DNA from: a virus
Lineage: Duplodnaviria > Heunggongvirae > Uroviricota > Caudoviricetes
DNA length: 64,000 bases
Reading direction: 5' to 3' (one strand)
Virus record (IMG/VR): IMGVR_UViG_3300033074_002207
Numbering within the stretch: the stretch's first letter is position 1; each line of letters starts with the position of its first letter. The notes below the pieces were generated by a model. The model was not told the origin of the DNA, did no database searches, and was given only the letters and a program-made list of their open reading frames with translations. Positions 4,217 through 63,768 of this stretch are shown here, one piece after another. The position numbers were made by a program, and so were the translations under genes.

Positions 4217-4247
4217 GGCGGGTGTGAAAAGCCCGCCTTCAATTTTT
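4217..4247 (+). terminator. intrinsic terminator (ggcggg-loop-cccgcc + ttcaattttt)
   Basis: 6-bp GC stem plus T-run immediately before the 4246 promoter. Confidence 0.55.
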
Positions 4248-4274
4248 CCTCAAAATGATTTGATGTGCTATAAT
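4246..4274 (+). promoter_or_regulatory. promoter: TTCCTC(-35 position)-17 bp-TATAAT
   Basis: ttcctcaaaatgatttgatgtgc tataat; the ORF starts at 4280. Confidence 0.6.
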
Positions 4275-4279
4275 CAAAT

Positions 4280-4585
4280 ATGCCTAGAATTACAGTCAAT
4301 CAAAAAGAAATCGTCGTTAATTTTCAGCATGGCACTCAGCCGAGCAGCTATAACGGTAAGCGACCACGCCCAGATGCAGATTACACCAAGTGTGTTATTA
4401 TTGCTGGACCAGAGGGTTGTCGTGATGAGCAAAAGGAAGTAGAGGGCGAAGCCACAGTTGTTCGCTATTACCGCGACCCACAGAACCGAAAGGAAGCACG
4501 TCGAAATGCTATTCTCCGCGCTCTTGACCAAAGCACTCTCAATAAGGAAGAGAGGGCTGCGGTATGGCAAACCATTCGAAAGTAA
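4280..4585 (+). CDS. hypothetical protein (basic/acidic, 101 aa)
   Basis: ORF directly downstream of the promoter. Confidence 0.45.
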   Translation: MPRITVNQKEIVVNFQHGTQPSSYNGKRPRPDADYTKCVIIAGPEGCRDEQKEVEGEATVVRYYRDPQNRKEARRNAILRALDQSTLNKEERAAVWQTIRK

Positions 4586-5299
4586 ATGTTTGAGTCTGCT
4601 AAGCTGATAGTGCCAGAGTTTCCGCGTACCGCCCACCTGCCAGTGGAGCCGAACGCAGAGCACGATGACATTATAGCCACAGACTCGGAACTTTTGCTAT
4701 TTCTAAACTCCGAGATTTACGTCGAAGAAAAAATCGACGGCACTAATCTCGGAGTTGCTCTTGTTAATGGAGAACCCATTGTTCGCAATCGCTCCCATGT
4801 GTTGCGAAAGAGTTATAGTAAATGCAAAACTCCCTCTCAAATCCAATATCAGCGCTTTTGGTCATGGTTTTATGACAACACCAATAAATGGCGCAACCTG
4901 AATAAAGAGCTTGGGTTTGAAGCCAGTATCTATGGCGAATGGTTGTATGCTCGACATGTTGTTGCATACGACCGTCTGCCATCCCTCTTTATAGCATACG
5001 ATATTTACAATTCGGCTGAAAGAGAGTTTTTACCACCCAAAGAAAGTCGTGATGCACTTGCTTTTTGTGGATTTGAAATTCCACCATTGCTAGATATTGG
5101 TGTGTTTTCAACAGCAGAGTTAATTGCGCTGCGTGATGGCTCCAGTAAATATTCAACGGGTTCACCACGTGAAGGCATCTTTCTGAAATCATCAAATGGT
5201 CAACAGCGATATAAAATGGTGTCTCCCTGGTTTAAAAGCGACGATAATTGGAATAAACAACCGCTTGTTCGAAATGAGTTGGGTAAAATAACAAAATGA
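4586..5299 (+). CDS. RNA ligase, Rnl2/DraRnl-like nucleotidyltransferase
   Basis: motif I lysine EEKIDGTN plus N-terminal FPRTAHLP; the same pair of motifs recurs in ORF 51722. Confidence 0.6.
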   Translation: MFESAKLIVPEFPRTAHLPVEPNAEHDDIIATDSELLLFLNSEIYVEEKIDGTNLGVALVNGEPIVRNRSHVLRKSYSKCKTPSQIQYQRFWSWFYDNTNKWRNLNKELGFEASIYGEWLYARHVVAYDRLPSLFIAYDIYNSAEREFLPPKESRDALAFCGFEIPPLLDIGVFSTAELIALRDGSSKYSTGSPREGIFLKSSNGQQRYKMVSPWFKSDDNWNKQPLVRNELGKITK

Positions 5300-5487
5300 A
5301 AGTGAAATGCTGGGAATGCGACGGTTTAGGACGTATAAGAATAGAAAGAACCGACCCTGCGTTGCATATCTTTACTATGGGCATATCCTGGATAATGGAG
5401 AAACTAATTGAATCAGACCCATATGATGATAGATTTTGGCAAGATTGCCACATTTGTGACGGATATGGATGCCAAGTTCAAGACTAA
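5296..5487 (+). CDS. small zinc-finger protein with two DnaJ-type CxxCxGxG repeats
   Basis: CWECDGLGR and CHICDGYGC. Confidence 0.45.
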   Translation: MKVKCWECDGLGRIRIERTDPALHIFTMGISWIMEKLIESDPYDDRFWQDCHICDGYGCQVQD

Positions 5488-5493
5488 AGTAAA

Positions 5494-5793
5494 ATGAAAA
5501 AACCAACAAATAAATCGAACGGCTCTAACAAGGGCAACAGAAACAATCGGTCATACAAACCCAAAAAGGTTGATTCCGGCAAAGAGGAAGGAATCGAACT
5601 AGATGGCGTTGTTACAGAAAACCTGTCTAATGGACGCTTCCGCGTGAAACTCGAAAATGACATGGAAATTCTGGGGCATATCAGTGGAAAAATTCGTACT
5701 CACTATATTCGCATCATGATTGGCGATAAAGTGAAAATTGAAATGAGCCCATATGACTTGACAATGGGGCGTATCGTTTTTCGATACCGATAA
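5494..5793 (+). CDS. infA: translation initiation factor IF-1 with Lys/Asn-rich N-terminal extension
   Basis: S1-like OB core ...[52 protein letters not shown] closely parallels bacterial IF-1. Confidence 0.85.
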
Positions 5794-5795
5794 TT

Positions 5796-5857
5796 TTCCT
5801 CAAAATGTATTTTTTGAAAATATGTAGTTGACAATCCTCGTGGTTGTTGGCTAAAAT
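5796..5857 (+). promoter_or_regulatory. promoter: TTCCTCAAAAT upstream element + TTGACA-17/18-TAAAAT
   Basis: ttcctcaaaatg...ttgaca atcctcgtggttgttgg ctaaaat. Confidence 0.5.
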
Positions 5858-8107: not shown

Positions 8108-8341
8108 ATGCATTCTGATGAATCCATAGTTACACCGGAGCCCCACACATCTTTAAGTGGGGCTCCCGTTGTTTATATTGAGTCTTTCAGCGCGGAAATT
8201 CACCGAAGACCCGAAACGATGTCTGGAAGAAGGACATATCATTATGCTGACGGAACTTCGCTTACAATTTTATTGGGTAAGCACGAAGAAGACTTTCCTC
8301 AAAATCCAAAAACCACCGATAAACAATCAACAGAGCAATGA
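8108..8341 (+). CDS. small hypothetical protein (77 aa)
   Basis: ORF after TATAAT at 8094; weak. Confidence 0.25.
   Translation: MHSDESIVTPEPHTSLSGAPVVYIESFSAEIHRRPETMSGRRTYHYADGTSLTILLGKHEEDFPQNPKTTDKQSTEQ
8295..8323 (+). promoter_or_regulatory. promoter: TTCCTC-17-GATAAA
   Basis: ttcctc aaaatccaaaaaccacc gataaa; gene start 8338. Confidence 0.55.
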
Positions 8342-11267: not shown

Positions 11268-11310
11268 TTCCTCAAAATCAGTTGACAAATCATAAAAGGC
11301 TGGAGATAAT
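11268..11310 (+). promoter_or_regulatory. strong sigma70-type promoter: TTCCTCAAAAT upstream box + TTGACA-17-GATAAT, driving tRNA transcript
   Basis: ttcctcaaaatcag ttgaca aatcataaaaggctgga gataat; shares about 75 bp with the promoter at 27459. Confidence 0.7.
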
Positions 11311-13157: not shown

Positions 13158-13186
13158 ATCCTCAAAATCTTCGGCGCGTGTATAAT
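13158..13186 (+). promoter_or_regulatory. promoter: ATCCTC-17-TATAAT
   Basis: atcctc aaaatcttcggcgcgtg tataat. Confidence 0.5.
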
Positions 13187-14741: not shown

Positions 14742-14927
14742 ATGGAAGAAAACACACAACTTTATCGACGTGCGCTTATATTTGTGGTAAAGCAAATGAC
14801 TGAACAACAGCGAGACGAACTATTGAAAAGATGCCCAGAGTATTTGTTTGGATGTCTTCTTGGAGCAAAAATGGTGGCGAATTTATCCTCAAAATCAATC
14901 ACGCAGAAATATCCAACCAATGGCTAA
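14742..14927 (+). CDS. hypothetical protein
   Basis: 61-aa ORF. Confidence 0.3.
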   Translation: MEENTQLYRRALIFVVKQMTEQQRDELLKRCPEYLFGCLLGAKMVANLSSKSITQKYPTNG

Positions 14928-15279
14928 ATCTGTTGATATCTATGAAATTATCGAATCATGTGCCAAGCATAGTGATATCTTCGGTTTTCATCTAGCCCGC
15001 GTTGTTCCAAAAAACAATCAAAAAATGCCCTATATGGATGCAAGAGAGATTATTGACAACCACGAATGGGGAACACATGGTGAAAGCGGGAAGGAGCCAC
15101 TTACCAAAGTGTTTCTTATTAACTGTGAAACCAATCATCTTAAAAATATCTTGCGAACACAGCCGCAAATCACAGCTTTAACCACATTAGTGATTATGGC
15201 GATTTTAATGGAGCGGGGAGAAATTTCTAAAACTAGCAATGTCATTAAAATTTCCTCAAAATCTAAACAAACGCCATAG
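14920..15279 (+). CDS. hypothetical protein (start at the Met overlapping the upstream stop, ATGGCTAA)
   Basis: in frame with ORF-track entry 14848..15279. Confidence 0.35.
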   Translation: MAKSVDIYEIIESCAKHSDIFGFHLARVVPKNNQKMPYMDAREIIDNHEWGTHGESGKEPLTKVFLINCETNHLKNILRTQPQITALTTLVIMAILMERGEISKTSNVIKISSKSKQTP

Positions 15280-15287
15280 AAGTCATT

Positions 15288-15686
15288 ATGCATAATAGTA
15301 GATTGTTTAGTGACGTTCAATATGACGCTCTTGATGCTTTTACAAAGGGGTTGATGTACGAAATCAACAGAGAGTCTTTGTCACATTCGCTACACACCAT
15401 GCTACAACTAGGGGCAGTAGTGGAGCGCCATGTGCTCAAGGCATTAAGCCATGAATGCCAACTAGAACATTCTGTGCTTTTGGCATATTGTATCAACCAC
15501 CCGCAGCTTTCAAAATGGTATTTGACCACCGACAACAGATATGCCGACTTCTTTATGGAGCAAATACCTATTGAACCACCATATATCGAAAATCCTGAAG
15601 GCTTTGCATGTTTGTGGGGCAACTTGGCATCTCAAATGATTGGCGTCATTATCGGGAACATACGAGAGGAAGGATTAAGTGGTTAA
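15288..15686 (+). CDS. hypothetical protein
   Basis: 132-aa ORF after the TTCCTC promoter at 15252. Confidence 0.45.
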   Translation: MHNSRLFSDVQYDALDAFTKGLMYEINRESLSHSLHTMLQLGAVVERHVLKALSHECQLEHSVLLAYCINHPQLSKWYLTTDNRYADFFMEQIPIEPPYIENPEGFACLWGNLASQMIGVIIGNIREEGLSG

Positions 15687-16933: not shown

Positions 16934-17223
16934 TGTATTGCATGCACTTAAACGAACCAGTTGTAAAAAATATCAATTGCCGATTTTCAGACGATAAGGC
17001 TTGTGTTATTGTTGCTAAAACAGAAAAAGCTCTAGTAGACTATTTTAAAGAACTCAACTCATTTCGTCAGTTCGGCACTCCTATAGAGACTGATTTTACA
17101 CGACTCGCTGGATATGCCACATGGTGCGGTAAAGTGGCATTAATAGATGACAAGGAAATCTTCATCACCCATGTTTTTTGGGCTGAAGATGGGAAAATCG
17201 AAGAAATTCCTCAAAATACTTGA
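16933..17223 (+). CDS. hypothetical protein
   Basis: 96-aa ORF (TAATG overlap). Confidence 0.4.
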   Translation: MYCMHLNEPVVKNINCRFSDDKACVIVAKTEKALVDYFKELNSFRQFGTPIETDFTRLAGYATWCGKVALIDDKEIFITHVFWAEDGKIEEIPQNT

Positions 17224-17248
17224 CATCCGCTTATAAAGAGGATACAAT
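17207..17248 (+). promoter_or_regulatory. promoter: TTCCTCAAAAT box + TTGACA-17-TACAAT
   Basis: ttcctcaaaatac ttgaca tccgcttataaagagga tacaat. Confidence 0.6.
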
Positions 17249-19065: not shown

Positions 19066-19187
19066 AATGTATGACATCCTCTCACCACTATGGAAAAATC
19101 CTCAAAATCAGCGACAACGCAATAGTTTAGTGTCAGGTAGGGGAACATCCCGGAGCGGAGTCTCCGCCCCCCTGACTCCAAAATATC

Positions 19188-20895: not shown

Positions 20896-21381
20896 ATGAA
20901 TTTTTATTTGTATTTTGAACGCTGGGACGAGAATGAAGAAAACATCATTGAGACAAAAGAGCGAATGGCGTTTGAAACCCTTGAAGCATGTCAAGAGTAT
21001 GCATCATCCAGCTATAATATCGTAGATGGTTGGTGGAATCCAACCAAAGATTATATTTGGGTTGCACCTGTTAACAGTGATGGCTGGGCGCTGACTATTG
21101 TTGATGAGTTTAAATCATTGCTCGACTATCACAACAACCCCGGACCAGGTTGGACATGGTATAGCGTTTGTTCGGGGCATAGCCCAAGAGCCGATGGTAC
21201 GTACCATGAAACCGACACTGAGTGTAATAGGTGTATGGCTGGTCGCTGGGTTAATGACAAAGAGCACGAAGAAGATGTGAAACTACACGATGAAGATTAT
21301 GATGCTTGGTATAAAAAGCACAATGCTCCAAACTCCGATTCTCGCAGATTCCTCAAAGCTGTTTTCCCAAACTTAAAATAA
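20896..21381 (+). CDS. hypothetical protein (Trp-rich)
   Basis: 161-aa ORF. Confidence 0.45.
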   Translation: MNFYLYFERWDENEENIIETKERMAFETLEACQEYASSSYNIVDGWWNPTKDYIWVAPVNSDGWALTIVDEFKSLLDYHNNPGPGWTWYSVCSGHSPRADGTYHETDTECNRCMAGRWVNDKEHEEDVKLHDEDYDAWYKKHNAPNSDSRRFLKAVFPNLK

Positions 21382-21383
21382 AC

Positions 21384-21800
21384 ATGAAATACACAACATC
21401 ATTCATCGTATTTCCAAAACACTGTAATCATTTGCGCGAAGTCATTTTTGGCGGACAGTTTATGGCTGAAATGGATTTAGCCGCAGCCCATTGTATTCGA
21501 CGCCTTTTGTTTAAGGCAAATGAAGGAGTAGAGCATGCCGTTACTCATAAAGCCAATTTTGATTTCCAAAAGCCAGCCTATCTTGGCGACTTAATTGAAC
21601 TAGAGGCTGAGGTTAAGTCTCTGGGAGAAAAATCTATTGTTGTTCAGGTTGTGGCTTGGCGCAACCGCAAGAATGTTCGCGCTCGCATGGCTATTGGCGA
21701 TTTTGTTTTTGTGGCTATCGGTGCTGTTGACGACCTTACAGGACACCCGGAATTTTTACCCTACAAAAATCACGGTTTGACAGACGAAGATATTGAATAA
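21384..21800 (+). CDS. hot-dog fold acyl-CoA thioesterase-like protein
   Basis: VFPKHCNHLREVIFGGQFMAEMDLAAAH resembles the YciA/4HBT hot-dog signature. Confidence 0.45.
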   Translation: MKYTTSFIVFPKHCNHLREVIFGGQFMAEMDLAAAHCIRRLLFKANEGVEHAVTHKANFDFQKPAYLGDLIELEAEVKSLGEKSIVVQVVAWRNRKNVRARMAIGDFVFVAIGAVDDLTGHPEFLPYKNHGLTDEDIE

Positions 21801-28740: not shown

Positions 28741-28746
28741 CATCTT

Positions 28747-39570: not shown

Positions 39571-39574
39571 ATAT

Positions 39575-40830: not shown

Positions 40831-40859
40831 TTCCTCAAAACGCCTCTAAGCATGATATA
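40831..40859 (+). promoter_or_regulatory. promoter: TTCCTC-17-GATATA, overlapping a 14-bp inverted repeat (cgcctctaagcatg / catgtttagaggcg)
   Basis: sequence. Confidence 0.45.
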
Positions 40860-40864
40860 AAAAC

Positions 40865-42723: not shown

Positions 42724-42800
42724 AGAGATTCCTCAAAATGATTTGAGGTAAGATAAGAAAGATATGGCAATCATAAAGTCAGCCCTAGACACCGATTTGT
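42724..42800 (+). repeat. direct repeat copy 1: duplicated pncB promoter + first about 15 codons (MAIIKSALDTDLYKS...)
   Basis: gattcctcaaaatgatttgaggtaagataagaaagatatggcaatcataaagtcagc versus the 43510-43586 copy. Confidence 0.65.
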
Positions 42801-43537: not shown

Positions 43538-43586
43538 GATAGTGAAATATGGCTATTATTAAATCTGCTGTAGATAATGACACATA
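43510..43586 (+). repeat. direct repeat copy 2 (functional pncB promoter and start)
   Basis: gatttcctcaaaatgatttggggtaagatagtgaaatatggctattattaaatctgc. Confidence 0.65.
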
Positions 43587-46048: not shown

Positions 46049-46077
46049 ATCCTCATTTGCCTGGGTGTTGTGATATA
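46049..46077 (+). promoter_or_regulatory. promoter: ATCCTC-17-GATATA
   Basis: atcctc atttgcctgggtgttgt gatata. Confidence 0.45.
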
Positions 46078-46082
46078 TTACT

Positions 46083-47753
46083 ATGGTTGTTCAGGAACTA
46101 GAAACACTCATTGAAGCCACAATCTTGCAGATTTATGGCATTAATTGCACGACAAAACTTGTCGTGCCTAAAAATCTCTTTGGTGGACAGCGATTTTATG
46201 CATCAAATGTATCCTTTCGCCTATCAGAGCAACTGAAAAAGTCACCAGCAGATATTAGTTGTGAAATCGCATCTGCATTGCCTCAACACCGATATATTGA
46301 TGCTGTAGAGGCTGTTAACGGGTATATCAACATTCTGCTCAGCAAAGTAGCTATTGCTGACATCGTTTGCCGACTTCATGATACCGACAATTTAGCATCA
46401 TCTGATGTGAATGCCGGAAAAGCAATCGCCCTTGAATTTGTGAGCGCGAACCCCACTGGACCACTTAGTGTAGTCAACGGTCGTGCTGCCGCGATTGGAA
46501 GTAGCCTAGCTAATATTCTGGAAACCACTGGCGCGTCAGTAACAACGCGGTATTACATAAACGACAATCCCGAGTCTGGTCAGTTGGTAGCACTTAAAAA
46601 CACATTGGATTATTACGACAAGGTAAACCAAGGTGAGCAAGTTGAGTTTCCAGAGGATGGTTATAAGGGCGAGTTTATCAAGAGTGTGTGGAAAAAATAT
46701 CATGCATTTCACGCGGTTGGAGATATCGCTTTTGGTGCGGTTGCTGTTAATTACATCATTCAGTGCCAACAGGCTGACCTAGACGCATTAGGTGTTTATT
46801 TTGATTCATTTGACCGGGAATCTGTCTATATGAAGGGACGGACTTTAGACCGTTTGTTCAGCGGCTTCGGTGTGAATTTATCTGATTTCACCTATATCCA
46901 GGATGGTGCTACATGGTTGAAAACATCTGAATATGGAGATAGTAAAGACAGGGTTATAATTCGAGCAGATGGACGACCCACTTATTTCCATAATGACATC
47001 ATTTACCATGCCGTCAAATATTATCGCAGTCGAAACGCTGATTCGAATGTACAGCTAATTAATATTTTTGGAGCAGACCATCACGGTTATGTTGACCGAT
47101 TAAATGCTGTCATGCGAATGTGGGGATTGCCAGATATCACTGTGCTTTTAACTCAAATGGTGAGCCTGGAAACAACCGATGAGAACGGTGTCACCAGTGC
47201 ATATATTGGAAGCAAGCGAGAAGGGCAATATTTGCATCTTAAAGAGGATTTTATCGACCGTGTGGGTTGTGACGCAGCGCGATGGTATTTTCTGTCTGAG
47301 ACATTGACTGCACATTTGAAGATTAATGTCGATAAGGCGACAGAGCAGAATATGTCCAATCCGGTGTTTTATGTGCAATATGCACATGCGCGATTTGCTC
47401 AAATTCTTTCAAAGGCATCAACCTTGGGAATAACACTCGACGGTCATTTTGCGAATCTATATTTGTTAAATGAATCCGAGGCGGCTGTTCAGCTTATTCT
47501 CAAATTGAACGAATATGAGTCTGTAGTGGCTAGTGCCGCTGAGAAGTTGTCGCCACATGTCATCAAAACATACCTGTATGAGTTGGCACAACTGACGCAT
47601 AAATATTATGCCAGCGGACGACTTATCGAACAAGCATATGAAGAGTGCTTAGCGGGATTGTATTTGGTCACCACCACGAACAAAGTTTTAAAGCACGGAC
47701 TTGGCTTATTGGGAATCAGTGCGCCGTTGGCTATGGTGGCTTTAGACGAGTAA
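46083..47753 (+). CDS. arginyl-tRNA synthetase-like protein; HIGH-equivalent position appears degenerate (SVVNGRAA in place of HVGHLRS)
   Basis: SANPTGPLSVVNGRAAAIGSSLANIL and GADHHGYVDRL align by eye to ArgRS [22 protein letters not shown] / GADQHGY. Confidence 0.55.
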   Translation: MVVQELETLIEATILQIYGINCTTKLVVPKNLFGGQRFYASNVSFRLSEQLKKSPADISCEIASALPQHRYIDAVEAVNGYINILLSKVAIADIVCRLHDTDNLASSDVNAGKAIALEFVSANPTGPLSVVNGRAAAIGSSLANILETTGASVTTRYYINDNPESGQLVALKNTLDYYDKVNQGEQVEFPEDGYKGEFIKSVWKKYHAFHAVGDIAFGAVAVNYIIQCQQADLDALGVYFDSFDRESVYMKGRTLDRLFSGFGVNLSDFTYIQDGATWLKTSEYGDSKDRVIIRADGRPTYFHNDIIYHAVKYYRSRNADSNVQLINIFGADHHGYVDRLNAVMRMWGLPDITVLLTQMVSLETTDENGVTSAYIGSKREGQYLHLKEDFIDRVGCDAARWYFLSETLTAHLKINVDKATEQNMSNPVFYVQYAHARFAQILSKASTLGITLDGHFANLYLLNESEAAVQLILKLNEYESVVASAAEKLSPHVIKTYLYELAQLTHKYYASGRLIEQAYEECLAGLYLVTTTNKVLKHGLGLLGISAPLAMVALDE

Positions 47754-47755
47754 TT

Positions 47756-47784
47756 TTCCTCAAAACGAGTCTTATGGAGATATA
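47756..47784 (+). promoter_or_regulatory. promoter: TTCCTC-17-GATATA
   Basis: ttcctc aaaacgagtcttatgga gatata. Confidence 0.5.
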
Positions 47785-47789
47785 AAGTT

Positions 47790-48470
47790 ATGCCAGATTT
47801 ATCACCGCACACAAAAAGCTACGTCTTTGTATTTGACGACACGCCCATTACTATTGCAGTAACTAATCAAAGTCTTTTGGATATTGAGGGCGTAGAAGCA
47901 ATTGTCAATGCTGCTAACACAGGAATGCGTGGCGGTGGTGGCATTGATGGCGCGATTCATAAGGCGGCTGGAAGCGAACTTCTCGAAAGTCTTCAAAAAG
48001 AGGCTCCAAACGGATGCCCAACCGGAGAAGTTGTAGTTACCCCCGGTTTTAAAACTGGCTTCAAATACATTTTCCACACACCTGGTCCGCGATGGGAAGA
48101 TGGTAAAAGCGGAGAGAAAGAATATCTCATTTCATGCTATTGGAATTGCATGAATGAAGCCAATCTCCTCAAGGTTCCATCCATTGGTTTTTGCTCGATT
48201 TCTACAGGAATCTACCGATACCCGCTTGATGATGCTGCCTTCACCGCAGTAGAAACGGTGCTACGATATTTACGAAGCGCGATTGAAGATATCGGTGTAT
48301 CCCACACCACCAAGGTGGTATTTGCCATGTACACCAAGCCAGAGTATGACATGTATCTCGGTGTATTGGATGCATTATACGACCAGCATTTGGCAATGGA
48401 AAAGACAGCATCGCGTGGCGGTTTCTGGTATCGGCTTTCACAAAAGTTCTCAGGATGGTTGGTTAGATGA
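47790..48470 (+). CDS. macro domain protein (ADP-ribose / O-acetyl-ADP-ribose binding or hydrolysing)
   Basis: IVNAANTGMRGGGGIDGAIHKAAG. Confidence 0.85.
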   Translation: MPDLSPHTKSYVFVFDDTPITIAVTNQSLLDIEGVEAIVNAANTGMRGGGGIDGAIHKAAGSELLESLQKEAPNGCPTGEVVVTPGFKTGFKYIFHTPGPRWEDGKSGEKEYLISCYWNCMNEANLLKVPSIGFCSISTGIYRYPLDDAAFTAVETVLRYLRSAIEDIGVSHTTKVVFAMYTKPEYDMYLGVLDALYDQHLAMEKTASRGGFWYRLSQKFSGWLVR

Positions 48471-49424: not shown

Positions 49425-49453
49425 TTCCTCAAAACTGAAAATCGGGATATAAT
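49425..49453 (+). promoter_or_regulatory. promoter: TTCCTC-17-TATAAT
   Basis: ttcctc aaaactgaaaatcggga tataat. Confidence 0.6.
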
Positions 49454-49458
49454 AAACC

Positions 49459-50631
49459 ATGCAAAAGATTAATGGAATCCCGGTTTTCGGACATCCTGTC
49501 GATGAACAGGCTTTAGCGCAGATTCAGAACTGCATGCCAGAGGCATGCGGCGCGGCTCTTATGGGCGACCATCACCTTGGTTATTCTGTGCCCATTGGCG
49601 GCGTGGTCGTTTACGATGGAATGATTTCTCCAAGCGGCGTGGGATATGACATCGCATGTGGAAACAAGGCTGTCCGACTGGACATGGACGGAGACGAAGC
49701 TCGAAAGAACATCAAGACCATCATGGATGATGTTTGGAAGAGCATCGAATTTGGAATTGGACGCAAGAACCAAGAGGTAGTAGACCACGAGTTGTTCGAC
49801 AGTGACGCTTGGCGTTTCGGTGTGGCGTCAGATTTCAAGGACAAGGCGCGTGAACAGCTTGGAACTGTCGGAAGCGGAAACCACTATGTGGACATTTTCG
49901 TTGACGAAAAGAACCGGGTTTGGGTTGGCGTCCACTTTGGAAGCCGTGGACTTGGACATACTTTAGCAAGCCACTTCATTAAGTTGGGTGGTGGAAGCGA
50001 CGGTATGCATGTAAAGCCCGTGGTATTCGATGTCAATTCCAACCTTGGCGCAGATTATATCGAGTGCATGAATCTTGCTGGCGAATACGCTTATGCAGGA
50101 CGTGACTGGGTGTGTTCGCGTGTGGCGCAAATTCTTGGGGCACCGATTGTTGAAGAAATTCACAATCACCACAACTTTGCGTGGAAGGAAACTCACAACG
50201 GTCGAGACTATTGGGTTGTCCGCAAGGGCGCAACCCCGGCATTTCCTGGTCAAAAGGGATTTGTTGGCGGTTCAATGGGTGACCGTTCTGTGATTCTGGA
50301 AGGCTTGGAGTCAGATGCGTCTCGTGAAGCGTTTTATTCCACTGTGCATGGTGCTGGTCGTATTATGTCTCGTACAGAGGCGACTGGACTGAGCAAGTGG
50401 GGTAAGCGACGTGTGCGCGAACCTGGCGTTAAGCAAGAAGACATGGACGCTTGGGTGAAGAAGGTTGGTGTAGAACTTCGTGGCGCGGGTGTTGACGAAT
50501 CCCCGCAGGTGTACAAGCGCATCAATGATGTTCTTGAACATCACGAAGGAACCATCAAGATTCTACATACGCTTACGCCAATCGGCGTGGCTATGGCTGG
50601 AAGCGACACCTTCGACCCGTACAAGGATTAG
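49459..50631 (+). CDS. rtcB: RtcB-family RNA ligase (3'-phosphate/5'-OH)
   Basis: GVGYDIACGN, GSGNHYVD, HNHHNF, VHGAGR. Confidence 0.8.
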   Translation: MQKINGIPVFGHPVDEQALAQIQNCMPEACGAALMGDHHLGYSVPIGGVVVYDGMISPSGVGYDIACGNKAVRLDMDGDEARKNIKTIMDDVWKSIEFGIGRKNQEVVDHELFDSDAWRFGVASDFKDKAREQLGTVGSGNHYVDIFVDEKNRVWVGVHFGSRGLGHTLASHFIKLGGGSDGMHVKPVVFDVNSNLGADYIECMNLAGEYAYAGRDWVCSRVAQILGAPIVEEIHNHHNFAWKETHNGRDYWVVRKGATPAFPGQKGFVGGSMGDRSVILEGLESDASREAFYSTVHGAGRIMSRTEATGLSKWGKRRVREPGVKQEDMDAWVKKVGVELRGAGVDESPQVYKRINDVLEHHEGTIKILHTLTPIGVAMAGSDTFDPYKD

Positions 50632-50671: not shown

Positions 50672-50707
50672 ATCCTCAAAAGCGGATAAGCTCGGGTATA
50701 ATAAGAC

Positions 50708-51685
50708 ATGACTAAACAGACTCCAAACGGCGACATTAAGATTTTCAGCGGCAACGCTCATCGTGACTTGGCATTACGGGTTTGTAACTACTTAAATGTA
50801 GAACTTGGGCACATGACTTGTACAAGGTTCGCAGACGGTGAAGTTCGTGTAAAAGTCGATGAATCTGCGCGTGGAAACAATGTTTACATCATTCAGCCCA
50901 CATGTGCCCCAACAAATGACAACTTGATGGAGTTGCTTATTATGTTAGACGCCTTCCGACGAGCATCTGTCAAGGAAATCAATGTCATTATCCCATATTT
51001 TGGTTATGCGCGTCAGGACAAAAAGGTAAAGCCAAGGGAGCCTATTTCATCTGCTCTTGTTGCCAAGTTGATTGAAACTGCTGGCGCTGCTCATGTAACA
51101 GTTTGTGATATTCACGCTGAGCAAATTCAAGGATTTTTTGATATTCCAGTAGACCATCTTTATGCTGGACCGATTATCACCAGATTTTATGAAGAGCAAG
51201 GATATGCTAATCAAGACGATGTTTGTGTGGTTAGCCCAGACGTTTCTGGTGTTGCCCGAGCGCGAAATTTAGCTGAGTCTCTCAAGGCACCTATTGCTAT
51301 CGTTGCAAAGCGACGACCAGATGCTAATGTGGTAGACATTTTAGAAGTTATTGGTGATGTTGCTGGAAAACGTTGCATCATGATTGATGACATGCTCGAC
51401 ACAGGTGGTACCATTATTGCTGGCGCAGAAGCATTAGTTCGACGCGGTGCTGTTAGTGTTGAAGCGGCGACAACGCATTTGGTGTTAAGCGCCAATGCAT
51501 CCCAACGGCTTCAAGATTCAGATTCTATTACAAGAGTGGTGGGGCTGGATACAGTTCCTATTGCCAGTGAAAAGTTATTCCCCAAGCTAAGCGTCTTGCC
51601 CGTTGCACCGCTCATTGGTGAAGCTATTAAGCGATTCCACGCAAATCAATCAGTGAGCGAACTGTTTGAAAAATGGAGACATTAG
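50708..51685 (+). CDS. prs: ribose-phosphate pyrophosphokinase (PRPP synthetase)
   Basis: near full-length collinearity with bacterial Prs (FSGNAH..., DGEVRVKV, IIQPTCAPTNDNLMELLIM..., IPYFGYARQDKK, HAEQIQGFFDIPVD, DDMLDTGGT). Confidence 0.9.
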   Translation: MTKQTPNGDIKIFSGNAHRDLALRVCNYLNVELGHMTCTRFADGEVRVKVDESARGNNVYIIQPTCAPTNDNLMELLIMLDAFRRASVKEINVIIPYFGYARQDKKVKPREPISSALVAKLIETAGAAHVTVCDIHAEQIQGFFDIPVDHLYAGPIITRFYEEQGYANQDDVCVVSPDVSGVARARNLAESLKAPIAIVAKRRPDANVVDILEVIGDVAGKRCIMIDDMLDTGGTIIAGAEALVRRGAVSVEAATTHLVLSANASQRLQDSDSITRVVGLDTVPIASEKLFPKLSVLPVAPLIGEAIKRFHANQSVSELFEKWRH

Positions 51686-51686: not shown

Positions 51687-51715
51687 TTCCTCATAGTTGA
51701 AAGTTTGACTATAAT
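51687..51715 (+). promoter_or_regulatory. promoter: TTCCTC-17-TATAAT
   Basis: ttcctc atagttgaaagtttgac tataat. Confidence 0.6.
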
Positions 51716-51721
51716 AAACAC

Positions 51722-52783
51722 ATGGGACGGCTTTTAACTAGAACAGAATTTAGGGAAGGAGTGCTGGAGCGCGACGGACATCGTTGTGTGATTTGTGGTA
51801 TCTCTGGTGTCAAGTTAGACGCCCATCATATTGTTGAACGAAGACTTTGGACAGCCGAACACGAGTTTGGCGGATATTTTCTCGACAATGGAGCATCCGT
51901 TTGCGAAACCCATCATATCATGGCTGAACAGACTGTTTTGTCATGTGATGATGTGCGTCGTGCTGCTGGAATCACCAAGGTGATTCTTCCAGAGCAATAT
52001 TACGATGACGTTGTGATTGACAAGTGGGGTAACTACATTCAATCAAACGGCACCAGGCTTCGCGGGGAGTTGTTTTATGATGAATCTGTTCAAAAAATTC
52101 TAAAAGAAGGTGGTGTTTTATCCGATTTTGTGGATTATGTTAAATATCCACGGACTTATCATTTAGATTTTAGCAATCCACCTAAAGATGATAAGGTTCT
52201 CAAAAATTACGACTTTATTCGTGACAAAGAAGTTGTAGTCACCGAAAAAATGGACGGCGAAAACACAACGATGTATCGTGATTATATCCATGCGCGGTCG
52301 CTTGAATATCTAACAGGAGAAGACCGTGGCTGGGTAAAAGCGTTGCATGCTAGAATTTGCTACGATATACCAGAAGGATGGCGTATTTGCGGTGAAAATC
52401 TGTATGCTAAGCACTCTATCACATATGTTGATTTAGAATCTTATTTCAACGTGTTTTCCATTTGGAATGAAAAGAATGAATGTTTGTCGTGGGATGACAC
52501 CGTTGAATGGTGCAACTTGCTGGGATTAAATCATGTTCCAGTCTTGGCTCGCGGACTTTTTGATAGAGAAGAGCTTCTTAGAATTACGCAAATGTTAGAT
52601 TTAACAGTTCAAGAGGGCTTTGTTGTGCGCCCAACTCAACAGTTTTCTTATTCAGATTTCAAATATGCAGTTATGAAATTTGTTAGACCCAACCATGTCA
52701 CCACCAGTAATCACTGGCGACATCAGCGTATCGTGCCAAATGGTTTGAAGAGAACAGACGCCTTGGAAAACATTGTGGTATAA
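51722..52783 (+). CDS. fusion protein: N-terminal HNH-like zinc/His domain + Rnl-type RNA ligase
   Basis: DGHRCVICG...DAHHIVER (HNH-like), then KYPRTYHLD and motif I EKMDGEN. Confidence 0.6.
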   Translation: MGRLLTRTEFREGVLERDGHRCVICGISGVKLDAHHIVERRLWTAEHEFGGYFLDNGASVCETHHIMAEQTVLSCDDVRRAAGITKVILPEQYYDDVVIDKWGNYIQSNGTRLRGELFYDESVQKILKEGGVLSDFVDYVKYPRTYHLDFSNPPKDDKVLKNYDFIRDKEVVVTEKMDGENTTMYRDYIHARSLEYLTGEDRGWVKALHARICYDIPEGWRICGENLYAKHSITYVDLESYFNVFSIWNEKNECLSWDDTVEWCNLLGLNHVPVLARGLFDREELLRITQMLDLTVQEGFVVRPTQQFSYSDFKYAVMKFVRPNHVTTSNHWRHQRIVPNGLKRTDALENIVV

Positions 52784-52804: not shown

Positions 52805-52835
52805 TTCCTCAAAACTTAACACGCCACGGTATATA
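52805..52835 (+). promoter_or_regulatory. promoter: TTCCTC-17/19-TATATA
   Basis: sequence. Confidence 0.45.
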
Positions 52836-52838
52836 AAC

Positions 52839-53747
52839 ATGAGCATTCGAACCGATTTACACACTCAAGAGGGCATCCAGACATATGCGGCTGGTATGAA
52901 TGCCTCGGTTTCTGACAAAGCAAAGATTTTGCCCTATATTAAGCCAGGAAACATTTTGGAAATCGGGTGCGGAAACGGCACTGTTCTTGAGTTGATTTCG
53001 GAAGCTTTCCCCACTAGCAATGTATATGGCGTGGACATGTCTGCGCAGTTGCTTGGTCTTGCTGCGCAAAGAAAGTATGATGGACCGGTGCAGTTATACT
53101 GCTGTGATGCTAAAAAGCTGCACACCATTGACGGGGCACCGCGAAAATTCTCTACCATCATCTTTTGCTCAGTTCTGCACGAGATTTTCTCTGGATATCT
53201 TGCGCGTTCCGTAGAAGACAACCCTATTGAAGACGCTTTTAGGGACACAATGGATTTTGTCGCCCACTTCTGCGAAGAATATCTAGAAGAGGGTGGACGG
53301 CTTATCATCCGCGACGGTGTGCGCCCCAAGCCCGAAATGATTTATGTGGAAATTGACACCCCGGAACAGCGTGATACATTCTTCCGATTTGTGGATGATT
53401 TTACGCCGTTTAAGATTGAATTTAGCTACTCGTCGGTAACTAATAAAATCAAGATGCCATCTACGCATTTGTTTGAATTTCTTACCAAATATTTCTACGA
53501 GAAGAACTGGAACATTGAAGTAACAGAACAGTTCGGATGGGCTGACCCTGACTCGATTGCTGAGTATCTTCAAGACTACTTCGAAGGTGATGCAGAAATG
53601 ACGATGCAAACAGTAGAAGGGTGGTCTTATACGCTCGAATTCTTGCGAAACAAGTGGACTGGTGACTTTACTCTCACCGATATGGATGGTCAAGAGTATA
53701 CTCCAAAGTCTACAATGATGTACATTGCGGAAAAGGTGAGTTTATGA
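52839..53747 (+). CDS. class I SAM-dependent methyltransferase (possible Hen1-like RNA 3'-end 2'-O-methyltransferase given neighbourhood)
   Basis: motif I ILEIGCGNGTVLE, motif II VYGVDMS; adjacent to the RNA ligase. Confidence 0.6.
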   Translation: MSIRTDLHTQEGIQTYAAGMNASVSDKAKILPYIKPGNILEIGCGNGTVLELISEAFPTSNVYGVDMSAQLLGLAAQRKYDGPVQLYCCDAKKLHTIDGAPRKFSTIIFCSVLHEIFSGYLARSVEDNPIEDAFRDTMDFVAHFCEEYLEEGGRLIIRDGVRPKPEMIYVEIDTPEQRDTFFRFVDDFTPFKIEFSYSSVTNKIKMPSTHLFEFLTKYFYEKNWNIEVTEQFGWADPDSIAEYLQDYFEGDAEMTMQTVEGWSYTLEFLRNKWTGDFTLTDMDGQEYTPKSTMMYIAEKVSL

Positions 53748-54209: not shown

Positions 54210-54238
54210 TTCCTCATACACCGGGCGGACTCCATATA
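54210..54238 (+). promoter_or_regulatory. promoter: TTCCTC-17-CATATA
   Basis: sequence. Confidence 0.4.
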
Positions 54239-54243
54239 GAAGT

Positions 54244-55275
54244 ATGGTAACACAGAATCTATATCGTCCTAAGTCGCTCAATGAGATTGTTGGACAAGAT
54301 GAAGTTCGAGAATATTTGCGCATCAAGGTAAGTGCAGCAAAAAATTCTGGCGCTCCTATTGGTCACACTCTTTTTCTGGGTTCTTCGGGTGCTGGTAAGA
54401 CCACCTTTGCACATGCAGTGGCTCTCGAAATGGGCGTTGATTGTGTAGAGTTGTTTGCACCAACGATTCCAAGCAAGGATGTTCTGATTCAGACACTCGC
54501 AAAACTGAAGCCAAATAGCATTGTGTTTGTGGACGAAATTCATGCGCTTTCTCCCAAGGTGCAGGAAGTTTTATACACTGCCCTTGAAGACGGTGAAATT
54601 CACGGAATCAACAAGTTCACTAAGGCTCAATACATTATCAAGGTTCCGCCCTTTACGATGATTGGTGCAACGACTCACGAGGGACGTTTGAACGAACCGT
54701 TGCGAAAGCGATTTCCAAACGCTGTTCGTCTGCGCCCTTACAATCTTGCAGAAATGACCAGAATCATTGTTTCGGCTGCTAAGAATCAGTTCCAGATTTT
54801 GCTGGACGAGAATACAGCAAAGCGCATCGCCTGTGTGTCTCAGGGCACTCCGCGTGTTGCACGGAACTTGCTAAAAGCCGCATATGAAGTGGCTCAGGCA
54901 TACAACTCGGATGTGTCAGTTGCGGTGGTAAACAAGACGTTGTTGTTCGAAGAGTTAGACCCGATTATTGGTCTGAATCGCGCTCAACGGCGCTACTTGA
55001 TGGCTCTCGCTACTGAGGGACAAATGGGTGCCAAGGGACTTGCGGTGCTTTTGGATGAACAGATTGAAACTATTGAGTTTGCAATCGAACCATTCTTGAT
55101 GCAAGAAGTGGAGCTTCCGCATCCAGACAACAACACACAATACGAATCTGGTATAATGGTAAAGCGAACAACCAAGGGTCGTCAAATCACCCCGTTTGGA
55201 TTGCGATACCTTCAGGTGTGCGCCAAGCTACAACAGCATGGTTGGTTGCAGGGCGAAAGTGTAAAGGTGGGTTAA
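54244..55275 (+). CDS. ruvB: RuvB-like AAA+ Holliday-junction branch-migration ATPase
   Basis: LYRPKSLNEIVGQDEVREYL...LGSSGAGKTTFAHAVALEMG...VFVDEIHALSP...PPFTMIGATT collinear with RuvB. Confidence 0.8.
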   Translation: MVTQNLYRPKSLNEIVGQDEVREYLRIKVSAAKNSGAPIGHTLFLGSSGAGKTTFAHAVALEMGVDCVELFAPTIPSKDVLIQTLAKLKPNSIVFVDEIHALSPKVQEVLYTALEDGEIHGINKFTKAQYIIKVPPFTMIGATTHEGRLNEPLRKRFPNAVRLRPYNLAEMTRIIVSAAKNQFQILLDENTAKRIACVSQGTPRVARNLLKAAYEVAQAYNSDVSVAVVNKTLLFEELDPIIGLNRAQRRYLMALATEGQMGAKGLAVLLDEQIETIEFAIEPFLMQEVELPHPDNNTQYESGIMVKRTTKGRQITPFGLRYLQVCAKLQQHGWLQGESVKVG

Positions 55276-61360: not shown

Positions 61361-61396
61361 CAAATCCCTTGATTTTCCTCAAAATCAAGGGATTTG
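61361..61396 (+). promoter_or_regulatory. 16-bp perfect palindrome (caaatcccttgatttt|CCTC|aaaatcaagggatttg) centred on the TTCCTC box; terminator/operator overlapping the promoter (-10 TATATA at 61398)
   Basis: sequence. Confidence 0.5.
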
Positions 61397-61686
61397 TTAT
61401 ATAGAATCATGTGAGGTAGCGCCTCACTCGGGAACGACGGAAACAGGACGTTGGAGAGTGAAGAACACAACGACCTTGAATCGAAGGATGGCGGAAATAA
61501 TCGACCGCCGAACGACTGTGAAAGTCGTTCCTTAAAAAACAGGACAAACGCCACGAAATGTGGTATAATAAATACATACGGGGTCGTAAGGGTTCGACAG
61601 TGGACATATGGCTTCGGTTGCAAGGCGTGGATGTATCCTTGGCCACGGCGAAAGGTCTTTCTTTGAAAATTGAATAAATAAGATGT

Positions 61687-62115
61687 ATGCAAACATCTAT
61701 GAAAGTATGTACAGTCTGTAAAGAGCCCAAAGACAGAAGTGAATTTCATTTCCGTAAGAAAGGCGAACCGTATTTACAAAGCTGGTGTAAAGCGTGTAAG
61801 TCAAAGGTTAATTCAACATATGATAAAAAATCTGCGAGAAAGAATCTTCTGAAAAGAAGAAATCTATCGAGCGAAGAATATTCTAATTTGTTGATTAAAC
61901 AAAATGAAGCTTGTGCGATTTGCGGCTCCTCTGTTGGACACCAAACCAATAGAGGTAAAAAAGCCAGCTTAGCAATCGACCATGACCATTCAACTGGTGC
62001 GGTGCGAGGCTTGTTGTGCAATAAGTGTAATCGAGCACTTGGGTACTTTCAGGATGACGTTGATATAATGCGACGAGCTATTTCTTATTTGCTCAATTTT
62101 GAAAGAAAGACCTAG
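61687..62115 (+). CDS. HNH homing endonuclease
   Basis: CAICGSS...DHDHSTGAVRGLLCNKCN. Confidence 0.7.
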   Translation: MQTSMKVCTVCKEPKDRSEFHFRKKGEPYLQSWCKACKSKVNSTYDKKSARKNLLKRRNLSSEEYSNLLIKQNEACAICGSSVGHQTNRGKKASLAIDHDHSTGAVRGLLCNKCNRALGYFQDDVDIMRRAISYLLNFERKT

Positions 62116-62419
62116 AGCGAAAAATGGATGCAAAAAACAAATGGCGTAACAAACTTCGCCTTCGCTGCCTAATAACCAGCGACATGAAGCAGTAGCGAGT
62201 CAGTAGCGACTGTGGAGTGCAGATGAATCTGAATAAGCTTAAAGGCTTCTGTTCGTAGCCAATAAGACGAAAAAGAATCGAACTGGCAACGGAACGGGTT
62301 GGTCTCTTCCAAAGTCCGTTGTAAGAAAAAATAGAGAAGAACCTTGTGGTAGCCAAAGTGCTGGTTGCATTGGATGCGGTTTCGATACCGCCGACTCCAC
62401 CAGTTTTGCATCGCCTCCA

Positions 62420-63031
62420 TTATTTGGAGGCGATGGCTTTACAAAACTCCTGCATTTCTTCATTAGAGAAATCGCTTTTTGCAAAATTTGCCATGACGCA
62501 AACAATTTGTATATTCCCTAAAATATAACCTTTAGATGAATCTATTCTATCTAAGCTGGCTGTATTGGGTTTCTTTTTTTCAGTTGATTTAGGAAGCTCC
62601 ATCTTCCACCCAGTATATGGGCATATTCCATCTTGAGCCGTCCACAATTCTTTGAGTTGTTCAATGGTTATGTCTAGTTCTCGCCCCTTGCTTTTTACAC
62701 TTTTTCTGGCGCGTCGTAAAAATTCTTTGAATGGCTCAGCGTTTTGTGTTCGCAATGTGCGCAAATTGGCGAGATGCTTCTTGTTGGAATCTCCATTTGC
62801 CCATTCTTGTAAATGTTGAACAAATTCTTTACCATTTTGCTTCATAAATATCTTGCCACAGTTTCTAGAACAAAACCGACGATACCCACGAGACTCACAC
62901 CTTTTATGCTCTGCTAACGACTTTGAATACGCAACACCACATTGTTCACATGTCAATTCAATTGTTTTTCCCATAGTAAGTTGTTCTACGTATAATTTCT
63001 CTTCACATCCACATTTTTCCCCCAACTCCAT
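62420..63031 (-). CDS. HNH endonuclease (HNH_3 / zinc-finger type)
   Basis: CEQCGVAY...C...C; SLDRIDSSKGYILGNIQIVCVMAN. Confidence 0.65.
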   Translation of the reverse strand: MELGEKCGCEEKLYVEQLTMGKTIELTCEQCGVAYSKSLAEHKRCESRGYRRFCSRNCGKIFMKQNGKEFVQHLQEWANGDSNKKHLANLRTLRTQNAEPFKEFLRRARKSVKSKGRELDITIEQLKELWTAQDGICPYTGWKMELPKSTEKKKPNTASLDRIDSSKGYILGNIQIVCVMANFAKSDFSNEEMQEFCKAIASK

Positions 63032-63036
63032 TCCAC

Positions 63037-63065
63037 TTCCTCAAAATATAAAAGCATACGATAAT
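63037..63065 (+). promoter_or_regulatory. promoter: TTCCTC-17-GATAAT
   Basis: ttcctc aaaatataaaagcatac gataat. Confidence 0.55.
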
Positions 63066-63071
63066 ACAAGT

Positions 63072-63722
63072 ATGAGTGAGACGTTGGATTGGATTAAACC
63101 AGGAGCGCTTTGCAACTGTAACGGTGATGGAACTGACACCCTTATTATTCGCACAGTCGAAAAGGATAGGGTTTCTGTTGCGCGTTTTGATGACGAGGCT
63201 GAAAAGTCGCTGTCTGTTGCAAAGAAGCTCTGGCAAGAGGGCTTTTTCTGCTGGGAGAGCTTGCACAAGATTCATAGGGAGTTTATTGAACCAGCAAGGC
63301 GCGAGTTCAACTTGTGTGATACTCATGGCGCGAAACTGACTTCACCCATTAACAGAAGGTGGAAAGCGAAACCTATGCCGTGCCCTGACGATATTCAAGA
63401 AATGCTGTTTGAATATTTCAAGATTCAAGAGGAAGAGTATTTGGACGCTGGACACGGATATCATTTAGGTGCCTATCTTGCAGAAAAGATGCTTAAAGCT
63501 GAGCGACCACTGGCGTTGGCTATCGGTCGGATTATCAATCAGATTTACATGCATGGGCTTGAAGATGCGCTGAATGGATATCAAGCATCTTCTAATGAAA
63601 GAATTTCTATGCTAATCAAGTCTATGGGAATTCGCACAGAACAGGCAGATTATTTTGCTAAAACTATTGGTATATGGGGCGACGAAATGTATCGTCAGTA
63701 TATCAAAAAAGCTCTGGGGTAA
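63072..63722 (+). CDS. hypothetical protein
   Basis: start at MSETLDW downstream of the promoter (ORF-track entry 62853..63722 trimmed). Confidence 0.45.
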   Translation: MSETLDWIKPGALCNCNGDGTDTLIIRTVEKDRVSVARFDDEAEKSLSVAKKLWQEGFFCWESLHKIHREFIEPARREFNLCDTHGAKLTSPINRRWKAKPMPCPDDIQEMLFEYFKIQEEEYLDAGHGYHLGAYLAEKMLKAERPLALAIGRIINQIYMHGLEDALNGYQASSNERISMLIKSMGIRTEQADYFAKTIGIWGDEMYRQYIKKALG

Positions 63723-63768
63723 CAAGGAGTTTTATTCCTCATCCTTTTGTGCGGTATAATACATAGAT

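Follow-up and report, generated by a model that had tools for sequence, protein, structure and literature searches.

A short asymmetric box, TTCCTCAAAA, recurs on the plus strand of a 64-kb stretch of DNA from a large tailed phage (IMG/VR record IMGVR_UViG_3300033074_002207; the whole stretch is called the window below). This box is probably the upstream recognition element of a sigma70-type promoter class that is specific to one clade of phages and that would give rise to mRNAs without a leader. The class is apparently undescribed; a literature search with the motif string matched unrelated items only, and no paper on promoters of Armatimonadota phages was found.

Occurrence and geometry of the box

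Exact copies of TTCCTCAAAA occur 17 times in the window, all on the plus strand, as compared to 0.41 on average and at most 3 in dinucleotide shuffles. When one mismatch is allowed, 31 matches are found where 9.9 are expected, and the number of box sites is about 31 once degenerate copies are counted (Table 1). Motif discovery by unbiased enrichment of 7-mers in upstream regions, one of the checks proposed in the first-pass annotation of this DNA, ranks TTTCCTC, TTCCTCA and TCCTCAA first, with 13- to 18-fold enrichment. Of the 17 exact copies, none is found deep in a gene; each is either intergenic or confined to the final 47 nucleotides (nt) or less of the preceding open reading frame (ORF). 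Every box coordinate listed earlier was checked and is correct, and sites at 14885, 21349, 29788, 35596 and 50672 could be added. The possibility that the box is part of a repeat or a duplicated cassette was rejected, as the spacers vary among the sites and true duplicates are restricted to the pairs 11268/27459 and 42729/43515.

Alignment on the box yields the consensus tTTCCTCAAAA-N13-nATAta-N5/6-ATG, in which the box holds about 16.7 bits of information and the 13-nt spacer none, and in which the base preceding the ATG is T or C. A real ORF has its first ATG 33–36 nt from the start of the box at 21 sites, and this distance is 34 or 35 nt in 16 of the 19 tabulated sites. These 21 sites lack a Shine-Dalgarno (SD) sequence and carry a TATAAT-like hexamer 13 nt past the box, followed by the ATG after another 5–6 nt. 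TTGACA is absent from the -35 position of the leaderless box sites, where the nATAta or TATAAT element follows 13 nt past the box. The distance from TTCCTC to the -10 hexamer is nearly invariant at 17 bp, as annotated earlier, with an exception at 63735, where GGTATAAT is 3 nt closer.

This geometry suggests that the box, at about -34 to -25, stands in for the -35 hexamer, with the TATAAT-like -10 element at a distance of 17 bp. With the hexamer at offsets 23–28 from the box start, corresponding to -12 to -7, position +1 falls at offset 34–35, on the A of the ATG. Transcription would thus start at this A or within 1–2 nt of it, and the resulting leaderless mRNA would not need an SD sequence.

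The box marks 19–21 of about 85 gene starts and roughly half of the apparent starts of transcription units. Some 21 operon-internal genes have a GGAG-type SD sequence 6–10 nt before the ATG, and at least 10 starts carry the box-less element TGGTATAAT. The earlier statement that almost every plus-strand gene or operon start is preceded by the box is therefore too strong.

A transcription signal and not a translation signal

The box acts on transcription and not on translation, since it is also found in front of tRNA genes and ORF-free units and often has a strong terminator hairpin on its 5' side; a translation signal was rejected on these grounds. At 4246, 39542, 50672 and 59442, terminator hairpins of -16 to -25 kcal/mol end right at the box. 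It is hardly credible that the box works in the RNA of polycistronic read-through transcripts, whether by enhancing translation, by marking a processing site or by acting like an anti-SD. The sequence UUCCUC does resemble an anti-SD, its reverse complement GAGGAA serves as the SD sequence of the divergent ORF 62420-63031, and four sites can pair with a GAGGA-like segment downstream. Such pairing partners, however, are present at 4 of the 31 sites where about 2 are expected, and the element that accompanies the box is an exact -10 consensus at -10 spacing. Moreover, little read-through RNA would contain a box that stands behind a terminator, and an RNA-level role does not account for boxes before tRNA genes and ORF-free units. 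The same pairing count led us to reject a hairpin or N4-like structured promoter.

The box promoters have a companion class without the box, in which (T)GGTATAAT, a perfect extended -10 element, is situated 6–9 nt before the ATG. Besides the example in Table 1, in which (T)GGTATAAT is at 8095, TGGTATAAT sites of this kind are found at 13812, 16760, 18452, 20361, 30343, 57416 (GroES) and 60426, and on the minus strand at 33533; in all, at least 10 leaderless-type starts belong to this class. Words of the G-TATAAT type number 30 on the plus strand and 9 on the minus strand. If a leaderless start is defined by TAnnnT ending 5–8 nt before the start codon without an SD sequence, the definition applies to 21 sites with the box and to at least 10 without it. 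The -10 element matches the consensus at a mean of 4.8 of 6 positions in box promoters (G at -13 in 5 of 21) and at 5.6 of 6 in box-less ones (8 of 10), a comparison that is partly circular as the box-less class was picked by its -10. A weaker -10 in the box promoters is what one would expect in exchange for a positive -35-type element. Together with the TTGACA-17-TAnAAT promoters described below, the box and TGGTATAAT-only promoters probably represent temporal or regulatory classes.

Another explanation takes the box as an operator at -30, where a phage repressor would bind for shut-off or timing; the promoters themselves would then consist of a -10 element only, with leaderless transcripts as in Deinococcus. 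With the TGGTATAAT class, this phage genome does have promoters made up of a -10 element only, and a well-placed -10 element is sufficient in Deinococcus (PMC12340547). A site overlapping the -35 region is the classic position for a repressor, and a box just 5' of the strong TTGACA promoters could serve for shut-off. On the other hand, the box is asymmetric and present in single copy, unlike dimeric operators. In 15 of the 21 box promoters the -10 element is imperfect, and most of them lack a TG or G extension, so that they would be weak on their own. Finally, the spacing between box and -10 element is as rigid as that between -35 and -10 elements, for which an operator has no need. We therefore regard a repressor site as improbable. 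An archaeal-type arrangement of B recognition element (BRE), TATA box and proximal element would be compatible with the geometry (-34 to -25, A/T at -10, leaderless), yet it was rejected because the same genome uses TTGACA-17-TAnAAT and TGGTATAAT promoters and its acquired genes are closest to those of bacterial Armatimonadota.

Boxes beside TTGACA promoters

The window contains four near-perfect TTGACA-17/18-TAnAAT promoters (5828, 11282, 17220 and 27473), each with a box on its 5' side. The box had been reported about 8 bp upstream of these promoters; adjacency holds at 11268, 17207 and 27459, with a gap of 3–4 nt, and at 5796, before the TerD-like gene, the gap is 22 nt. An UP element or the site of a class I or class II activator is one possible reading of these boxes. 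Compared to the leaderless class, their distance from the start is greater by 14–15 bp (about 1.4 helical turns), and an ATA-containing hexamer is present at the box's own -10 position (+24–26), as illustrated by CATAAA at 11268 and by CTTATA. The layout of box, 3–5 nt and TTGACA recurs in the related contigs L122 and L224. Because of the larger distance and the hexamer at the box's own -10 position, tandem overlapping promoters seem to fit at least as well as a single activator that acts from two positions. The box would then provide a second overlapping promoter that keeps the tRNA and TerD units on after a switch from the host-type promoters.

Conservation in related phages and density in other DNA

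Comparison at the DNA level with 50,697 deposited phage genomes gave no match to the window, and a protein comparison for close relatives yielded distant matches to a tail-fibre domain and to the RuvB-like protein only. The same phage was found in the Logan assemblies SRR32380200 and SRR32380201, from which 7.7 kb on the left (L125) and 9.7 kb on the right (L211) could be added to the window; the sequence examined amounts to about 82 kb. Syntenic relatives were reached through the TerD and GroEL genes. Two of them, L122 and L123, share proteins at 31–76% identity; L337 (39% G+C) has 75% and L335 (51% G+C) 63% identity in GroEL. A scan of IMG/VR with a DNA pattern consisting of the box and TTGACAA recovered L224, a piece of a 177.7-kb contig and the only real relative from that scan; an IMG/VR scan with box-N13-TATAAT gave chance singletons among the matches listed, and one with the arginyl-tRNA synthetase found nothing.

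All five relatives, which have diverged to 45–78% protein identity, carry the box in the same geometry, and for minus-strand genes the box is likewise on that strand (L122 9606, L123 2009). At orthologous promoters, those of the 101-aa gene and of the RtcB, methyltransferase, RuvB-like and Nudix genes, TCCTCA and the -10 element are kept while the spacers have diverged. For the promoter of the 101-aa gene (4246 in the window) this holds in L122 and L123, and the TCCTCA core is kept in L335 and L337 at the orthologues of the RtcB, methyltransferase and RuvB-like genes. The order of GroEL terminator, box and Nudix gene is likewise retained in L335 and L337, with hairpins of different sequence, and the GroES/GroEL orthologues retain a box-less extended -10 element. 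The predicted promoter class is thus conserved gene by gene across the relatives. To judge from the alignments its conserved core is TCCTCA, since the A-run of the box is lost in L335. The promoter and leaderless reading put forward in the first-pass annotation is consistent with all of this: the geometry, the pyrimidine at -1 and purine at +1, the absence of SD sequences, the boxes at tRNA genes and ORF-free units, the terminators on the 5' side and the five relatives.

The host of the phage is probably a member of the Armatimonadota, as two genes that were probably acquired point to this phylum. The best named bacterial relatives of the TerD-like protein (5941-8100) are from Chthonomonadaceae, Capsulimonas and Armatimonas (53–58% identity), and those of GroEL are from Fimbriimonadaceae and other Armatimonadota (56–59%). 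The composite motif TCCTCA-N14-19-NAnnnW-N3-9-ATG was scanned in several sets of DNA. Its density is 31.8 per 100 kb in the phage clade (151 kb), as compared to 1.8 in Armatimonadota-like DNA (225 kb), 3.2 in other TerD-carrying phage contigs (687 kb) and 2.3 in other bacteria (1.3 Mb). No box was found in the other phages with TerD genes (36 IMG/VR loci). Judged by these densities, the motif is specific to the phage clade. The genes in the host-like Armatimonadota loci are led by SD sequences, and because of this the leaderless habit appears to belong to the phage and not to the candidate host.

These figures also bear on the idea that the phage borrows the signal of a host regulon, with an alternative sigma or an activator of the host as the reader of the box. 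A phage-encoded factor was not found in the 82 kb, and candidate-host DNA was sampled over about 225 kb only. Nevertheless, the density of the composite motif in Armatimonadota-like loci is about one eighteenth of that in the phage clade and does not exceed that in unrelated bacteria, the genes of these loci are not leaderless, and the TATAAT-type -10 element indicates a group-1 or group-2 sigma instead of a typical alternative sigma. A host factor is thus quite improbable, even more so than a repressor.

Comparison with known systems

One phage-specific promoter class is formed by the middle promoters of T4, in which the MotA box (a/t)(a/t)(a/t)TGCTTtA is centred at -30, with a host-type TAnnnT element about 12 bp downstream. 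The role of AsiA in this sigma appropriation has been summarised (PMC4124052). Both systems have a phage-specific, asymmetric box of 9–10 bp that is centred near -30, replaces the -35 element and lies about 12–13 bp from a host-type TAnnnT -10 element, and in both genomes host-type -35/-10 promoters are also used, among others upstream of tRNA genes. However, TTCCTCAAAA, with its TCCTCA core, is unrelated to (a/t)(a/t)(a/t)TGCTTtA and is not a MotA box, no MotA or AsiA homologue was detected in the ORFs scanned here, the transcripts of the present phage would be leaderless, and its box is also found directly upstream of intact TTGACA elements. The likeness to MotA/AsiA is therefore an analogy only, and on present evidence the box does not belong to the MotA family.

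Phages may also provide an alternative sigma, such as gp28 of SPO1, which recognises promoters with the consensus AGGAGA-N17-TTTnTTT. A phage-specific -35 element that defines a temporal gene class would be common to both, and the nearly invariant spacing in the present phage agrees with the 17 +/- 1 bp of such promoters. Unlike in SPO1, the -10 element is the housekeeping TATAAT and not a new hexamer, and no sigma gene was found in the 82 kb. Among huge phages with translation genes, cases that have a sigma70 and AsiA-like proteins of their own are known (PMC7162821).

With respect to leaderless expression, it was shown experimentally that a -10 element directly before an ORF yields leaderless mRNAs in Deinococcus (PMC12340547), and the late promoters of Thermus phages have an extended -10 element and do not need a -35 element (PMC4124052). 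As in Deinococcus-Thermus and in the Thermus phages phiYS40 and P23-45, TAnnnT stands 5–8 nt before the start codon without an SD sequence, and the box-less TGGTATAAT class belongs to the same kind. Those promoters have no conserved box at the -35 position, unlike the ones described here, and further differences are that the genes of the candidate host look SD-led and that no gp39-like factor was identified.

The proposed factor that reads the box

The reader of the box would be a dedicated monomeric factor that the phage specifies, while the housekeeping sigma of the host would serve the TTGACA promoters of the phage. This division is suggested because host-like DNA lacks the box, because the TTGACA promoters show the preference of a housekeeping sigma, and because the information content of the box is much higher than that of a normal -35 element. 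A phage-specified factor, as the first-pass annotation had supposed, would also be in line with the restriction of the motif to the phage clade. We tentatively favour a phage alternative sigma-like protein with a normal region 2 and a new specificity in region 4. A phage sigma agrees with the observations no less than sigma appropriation does; a MotA/AsiA-style appropriator of the host sigma that is bound at -30 is also plausible and ranks next.

Several findings weigh against this reading as a whole, and the circularity in the comparison of -10 strength is one of them. Searches with Pfam and PHROGs of about 70 ORFs in the window revealed no sigma (Sigma70_r2/r4), MotA, AsiA, RNA polymerase (RNAP) or obvious helix-turn-helix regulator, and the precomputed Pfam tables of the flanks and relatives contain no sigma, MotA, AsiA or RNAP. 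Consequently, the MotA/AsiA-like or sigma-like protein that had been anticipated did not turn up, and the reading factor is hypothetical. The same searches of 10 ORFs of L224 gave no sigma, MotA, AsiA, RNAP or obvious helix-turn-helix regulator either; these searches covered part of each genome, and divergent analogues would escape detection. The leaderless start is deduced from geometry, with which T or C at -1 is in agreement. Beside TTGACA promoters the role of the box is ambiguous, as it may also be an upstream activator or repressor site. In L335, the most distant relative, the distance from box to ATG is 36–40 nt and some of the -10 elements are poor. The assignment of the host depends on the similarity of TerD and GroEL (53–59%), and the host-like DNA sampled amounts to only about 225 kb.

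A phage-encoded RNAP, single-subunit or multisubunit as in phiKZ and AR9, could also use the box as a part of its promoters. RNAPs of their own, with idiosyncratic promoters, are frequent in jumbo phages, and most of the genome of the present phage lies outside the sequence examined. The two-block design, with an unconserved 13-nt spacer and a textbook TATAAT that is often extended by G or TG, is nevertheless the signature of a sigma70-family holoenzyme and differs from the contiguous promoters of phage RNAPs, and an RNAP domain was found in none of the scanned ORFs. We consider this very improbable and return to a factor that acts with the host RNAP. A broader interpretation, which is speculative and in our opinion rather unlikely, is that a clade of giant Armatimonadota phages redirects the host RNAP by a factor that has no relation to MotA/AsiA or to any recognisable sigma family, coupled to a phage-wide strategy of leaderless mRNA that the host itself does not have. 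The IF1, RF-domain protein, formyltransferase, tRNAs and aminoacyl-tRNA synthetases of the phage might support such a strategy.

If the proposed role of the box is correct, its positions map one promoter class in an uncultured lineage of giant phages whose host phylum has barely been studied; operons, and probably the members of one temporal class, could be read from the same map. This role would also predict a specificity factor in every genome that bears the box and not in the TerD phages that lack it, which could be found by phylogenetic profiling, and it would constitute a natural case in which a phage instead of its host has adopted leaderless expression at large scale. This bears on the take-over of gene expression by giant phages that carry translation genes of their own. 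Should the factor be identified, the 10-bp box with its strict spacing could serve as a compact orthogonal part for building promoters, and the value of the finding would rise if that factor is of a new type.

Table 1 Positions of box sites in the window, with one example of the box-less class; distances of the ATG are counted in nt from the start of the box
Coordinates	Strand	Promoter element	ATG	Downstream	Remarks
3208..3235	+	degenerate box TCCCTCAAAA			start of 1-kb ORF-free stretch
4246..4282	+	TTCCTCAAAA-N13-TATAAT-N5-ATG		101-aa ORF, then RNA ligase	terminator hairpin 4216-4238 directly 5'
5796..5857	+	box, 22 nt, TTGACA-18-TAAAAT		TerD-like gene	layout kept in L122 and L123
8092..8110	+	TGGTATAAT-N6-ATG			box-less class
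8295..8340	+	box, GATAAA	+43	isocitrate dehydrogenase	leader about 8 nt
11268..11310	+	box, 4 nt, TTGACA-17-GATAAT		tRNA-Glu array	same layout at L122 13733
13158..13185	+	ATCCTCAAAA-N13-TATAAT		tRNA-Thr 13270-13339	no ORF behind
14885..14922	+	ATCCTCAAAA, weak -10	+35
15252..15290	+	box	+36		box within 3' end of preceding ORF
17207..17248	+	box, 3 nt, TTGACA-17-TACAAT		tRNA-Leu array	same layout at L122 19052
19098..19125	+	ATCCTCAAAA, weak -10		ORF at 19188	after tRNA-Leu; leader about 55 nt
21349..21386	+	TTCCTCAAAG	+35	thioesterase
27459..27501	+	box, 4 nt, TTGACA-17-GATAAT		tRNA-Phe array	paralogue of 11268
28712..28889	+	TTCCTCAAAA-N13-TATAAT		about 140 nt without ORF, then G+C-rich terminator hairpin 28853-28889	candidate small RNA unit
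29788..29825	+	ATCCTCAAAG	+35
30960..30997	+	box, GATATA	+35	ATP-grasp gene
35596..35632	+	ATCCTCAATA	+34	DHH phosphoesterase
39542..39577	+	TTCCTCATAA	+33		terminator hairpin (-25 kcal/mol) directly 5'
40831..40867	+	box, GATATA	+34
42729..42766	+	relic copy		NAPRTase promoter and first codons	displaced by insertion of GIY-YIG endonuclease gene
43515..43551	+	box	+34	NAPRTase	box within 3' end of GIY-YIG ORF
46049..46085	+	ATCCTCATTT, GATATA	+34	arginyl-tRNA synthetase
47756..47792	+	box	+34	Macro-domain gene
49425..49461	+	box, TATAAT	+34	RtcB
50672..50710	+	ATCCTCAAAA with GGTATAAT	+36	PRPP synthetase	terminator hairpin 5'
51687..51724	+	TTCCTCATAG, TATAAT	+35	RNA ligase
52805..52841	+	box	+34	methyltransferase
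54210..54246	+	TTCCTCATAC	+34	RuvB-like AAA
59442..59479	+	TTCCTCAATA, TGTATAAT	+35	Nudix gene	after GroEL terminator
61375..61403	+	box, then TATATA		ORF-free	box in loop of hairpin ending pilin-like gene
63037..63074	+	box, GATAAT	+35
63735..63771	+	TTCCTCATCC; GGTATAAT shifted 3 nt toward box	+34

Gene content and further observations

The window has a G+C content of 42–45%, and nearly all its genes are on the plus strand. It is DNA of an uncultured giant tailed phage, as indicated by the tRNA arrays, the many auxiliary genes and a tail-fibre domain in one minus-strand ORF. There are 23 tRNA genes, arranged in arrays. Translation is further represented by an arginyl-tRNA synthetase, a fragment of a class-I synthetase, IF1, an RF-domain protein and a formyltransferase, and repair of RNA and DNA by RtcB, two RNA ligases, an ATP-dependent DNA ligase and a RuvB-like ATPase. 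Metabolic genes (PRPP synthetase, NAPRTase, isocitrate dehydrogenase), chaperone genes (GroES/GroEL, Hsp20) and mobile-element genes (homing endonucleases and a TnpB) are present as well. The genes for IF1, the RF-1-domain protein, the formyltransferase and the Macro-domain protein are located at 5494-5793, 23795-24409, 24396-24977 and 47790-48470, respectively, and a gene for an ADP-ribosylglycohydrolase lies just past the window (L211 1222-2028). These five proteins may be relevant to a take-over of translation and to conflicts that involve ADP-ribosylation.

The tRNA arrays are situated at 11413-12317, 17475-19795, 23621-23705 and 27683-28008, and their identities are dominated by a few (Leu, 13 copies; Phe(GAA), 5; Glu, 4). 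Three 77-nt tRNAs with 'Leu' anticodons (17942-18177) lack the long variable arm expected of a bacterial tRNA-Leu, and one tRNA-Arg is 92 nt long. RtcB, RNA ligases and phosphoesterases are encoded near the arrays, which suggests replacement or repair of tRNAs by the phage against anticodon nucleases of the host. HNH homing-endonuclease ORFs occur within the tRNA-Glu array (11648-12151) and just past the tRNA-Phe array (28066-28641). A tRNA-like 3' end that was not called (GGTTCGATTCCTG...ACCACCA; 28675-28711) adjoins the box at 28712.

Some non-coding regions deserve mention. The region 3205-4245 comprises 1.04 kb without a convincing ORF, with a degenerate box (3208) at its start and an extended -10 element, GTGGTATAAT, at about 3385; it may hold one or more non-coding RNAs, and a search of it against Rfam gave no match. 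A tmRNA-like gene at 61561-62450 starts with GGGGTCGTAAGGGTTCGAC about 10 nt after an extended -10 element GTGGTATAAT. It gave sub-threshold matches to the Rfam tmRNA model at 61580-61700 (model positions 1-104, E 0.002) and at 62088-342 (model positions 56-308, 20.8 bits as compared to a threshold of 47 bits), and was not called by ARAGORN. The gene appears to be interrupted by an Endonuclease VII ORF (61687-62115). The leader of the TerD-like gene, about 100 nt long, is conserved between the window (5858-5940), L122 and L123 (about 9860-10000) and L299 (about 9960), and contains ACGGCTA and CTTCCTTCTAAAA, the latter being repeated in the relatives. Since it is also found in L299, a contig of a huge phage without the box, this leader may be a cis-regulatory RNA.

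Around the NAPRTase gene, a GIY-YIG homing-endonuclease gene (42845-43537) is inserted just past the gene start, and the box promoter together with the first codons (MAIIKSA...) is duplicated on either side of it, at 42729 and 43515. About 1.7 kb beyond the end of the window, tandem boxes stand 16 nt apart (L211 2032-2084; TTCCTCAAAT...TTCCTCAATA) before a 490-aa ORF, whose ATG is at the canonical +34 with respect to the second box only. The reverse complement of the 63037 box (TTTTGAGGAA; 63031-63046) forms a GAGGA SD sequence for the divergent minus-strand ORF 62420-63031, 7 nt upstream of its ATG, a single case that is probably incidental. Finally, a TnpB/IS605-type gene on the minus strand (41022-42074) encodes a protein with 76% identity to the product of L299 6332-7387, on an otherwise unrelated 379-kb IMG/VR contig, which suggests that this element was exchanged between phages that share a habitat or a host.

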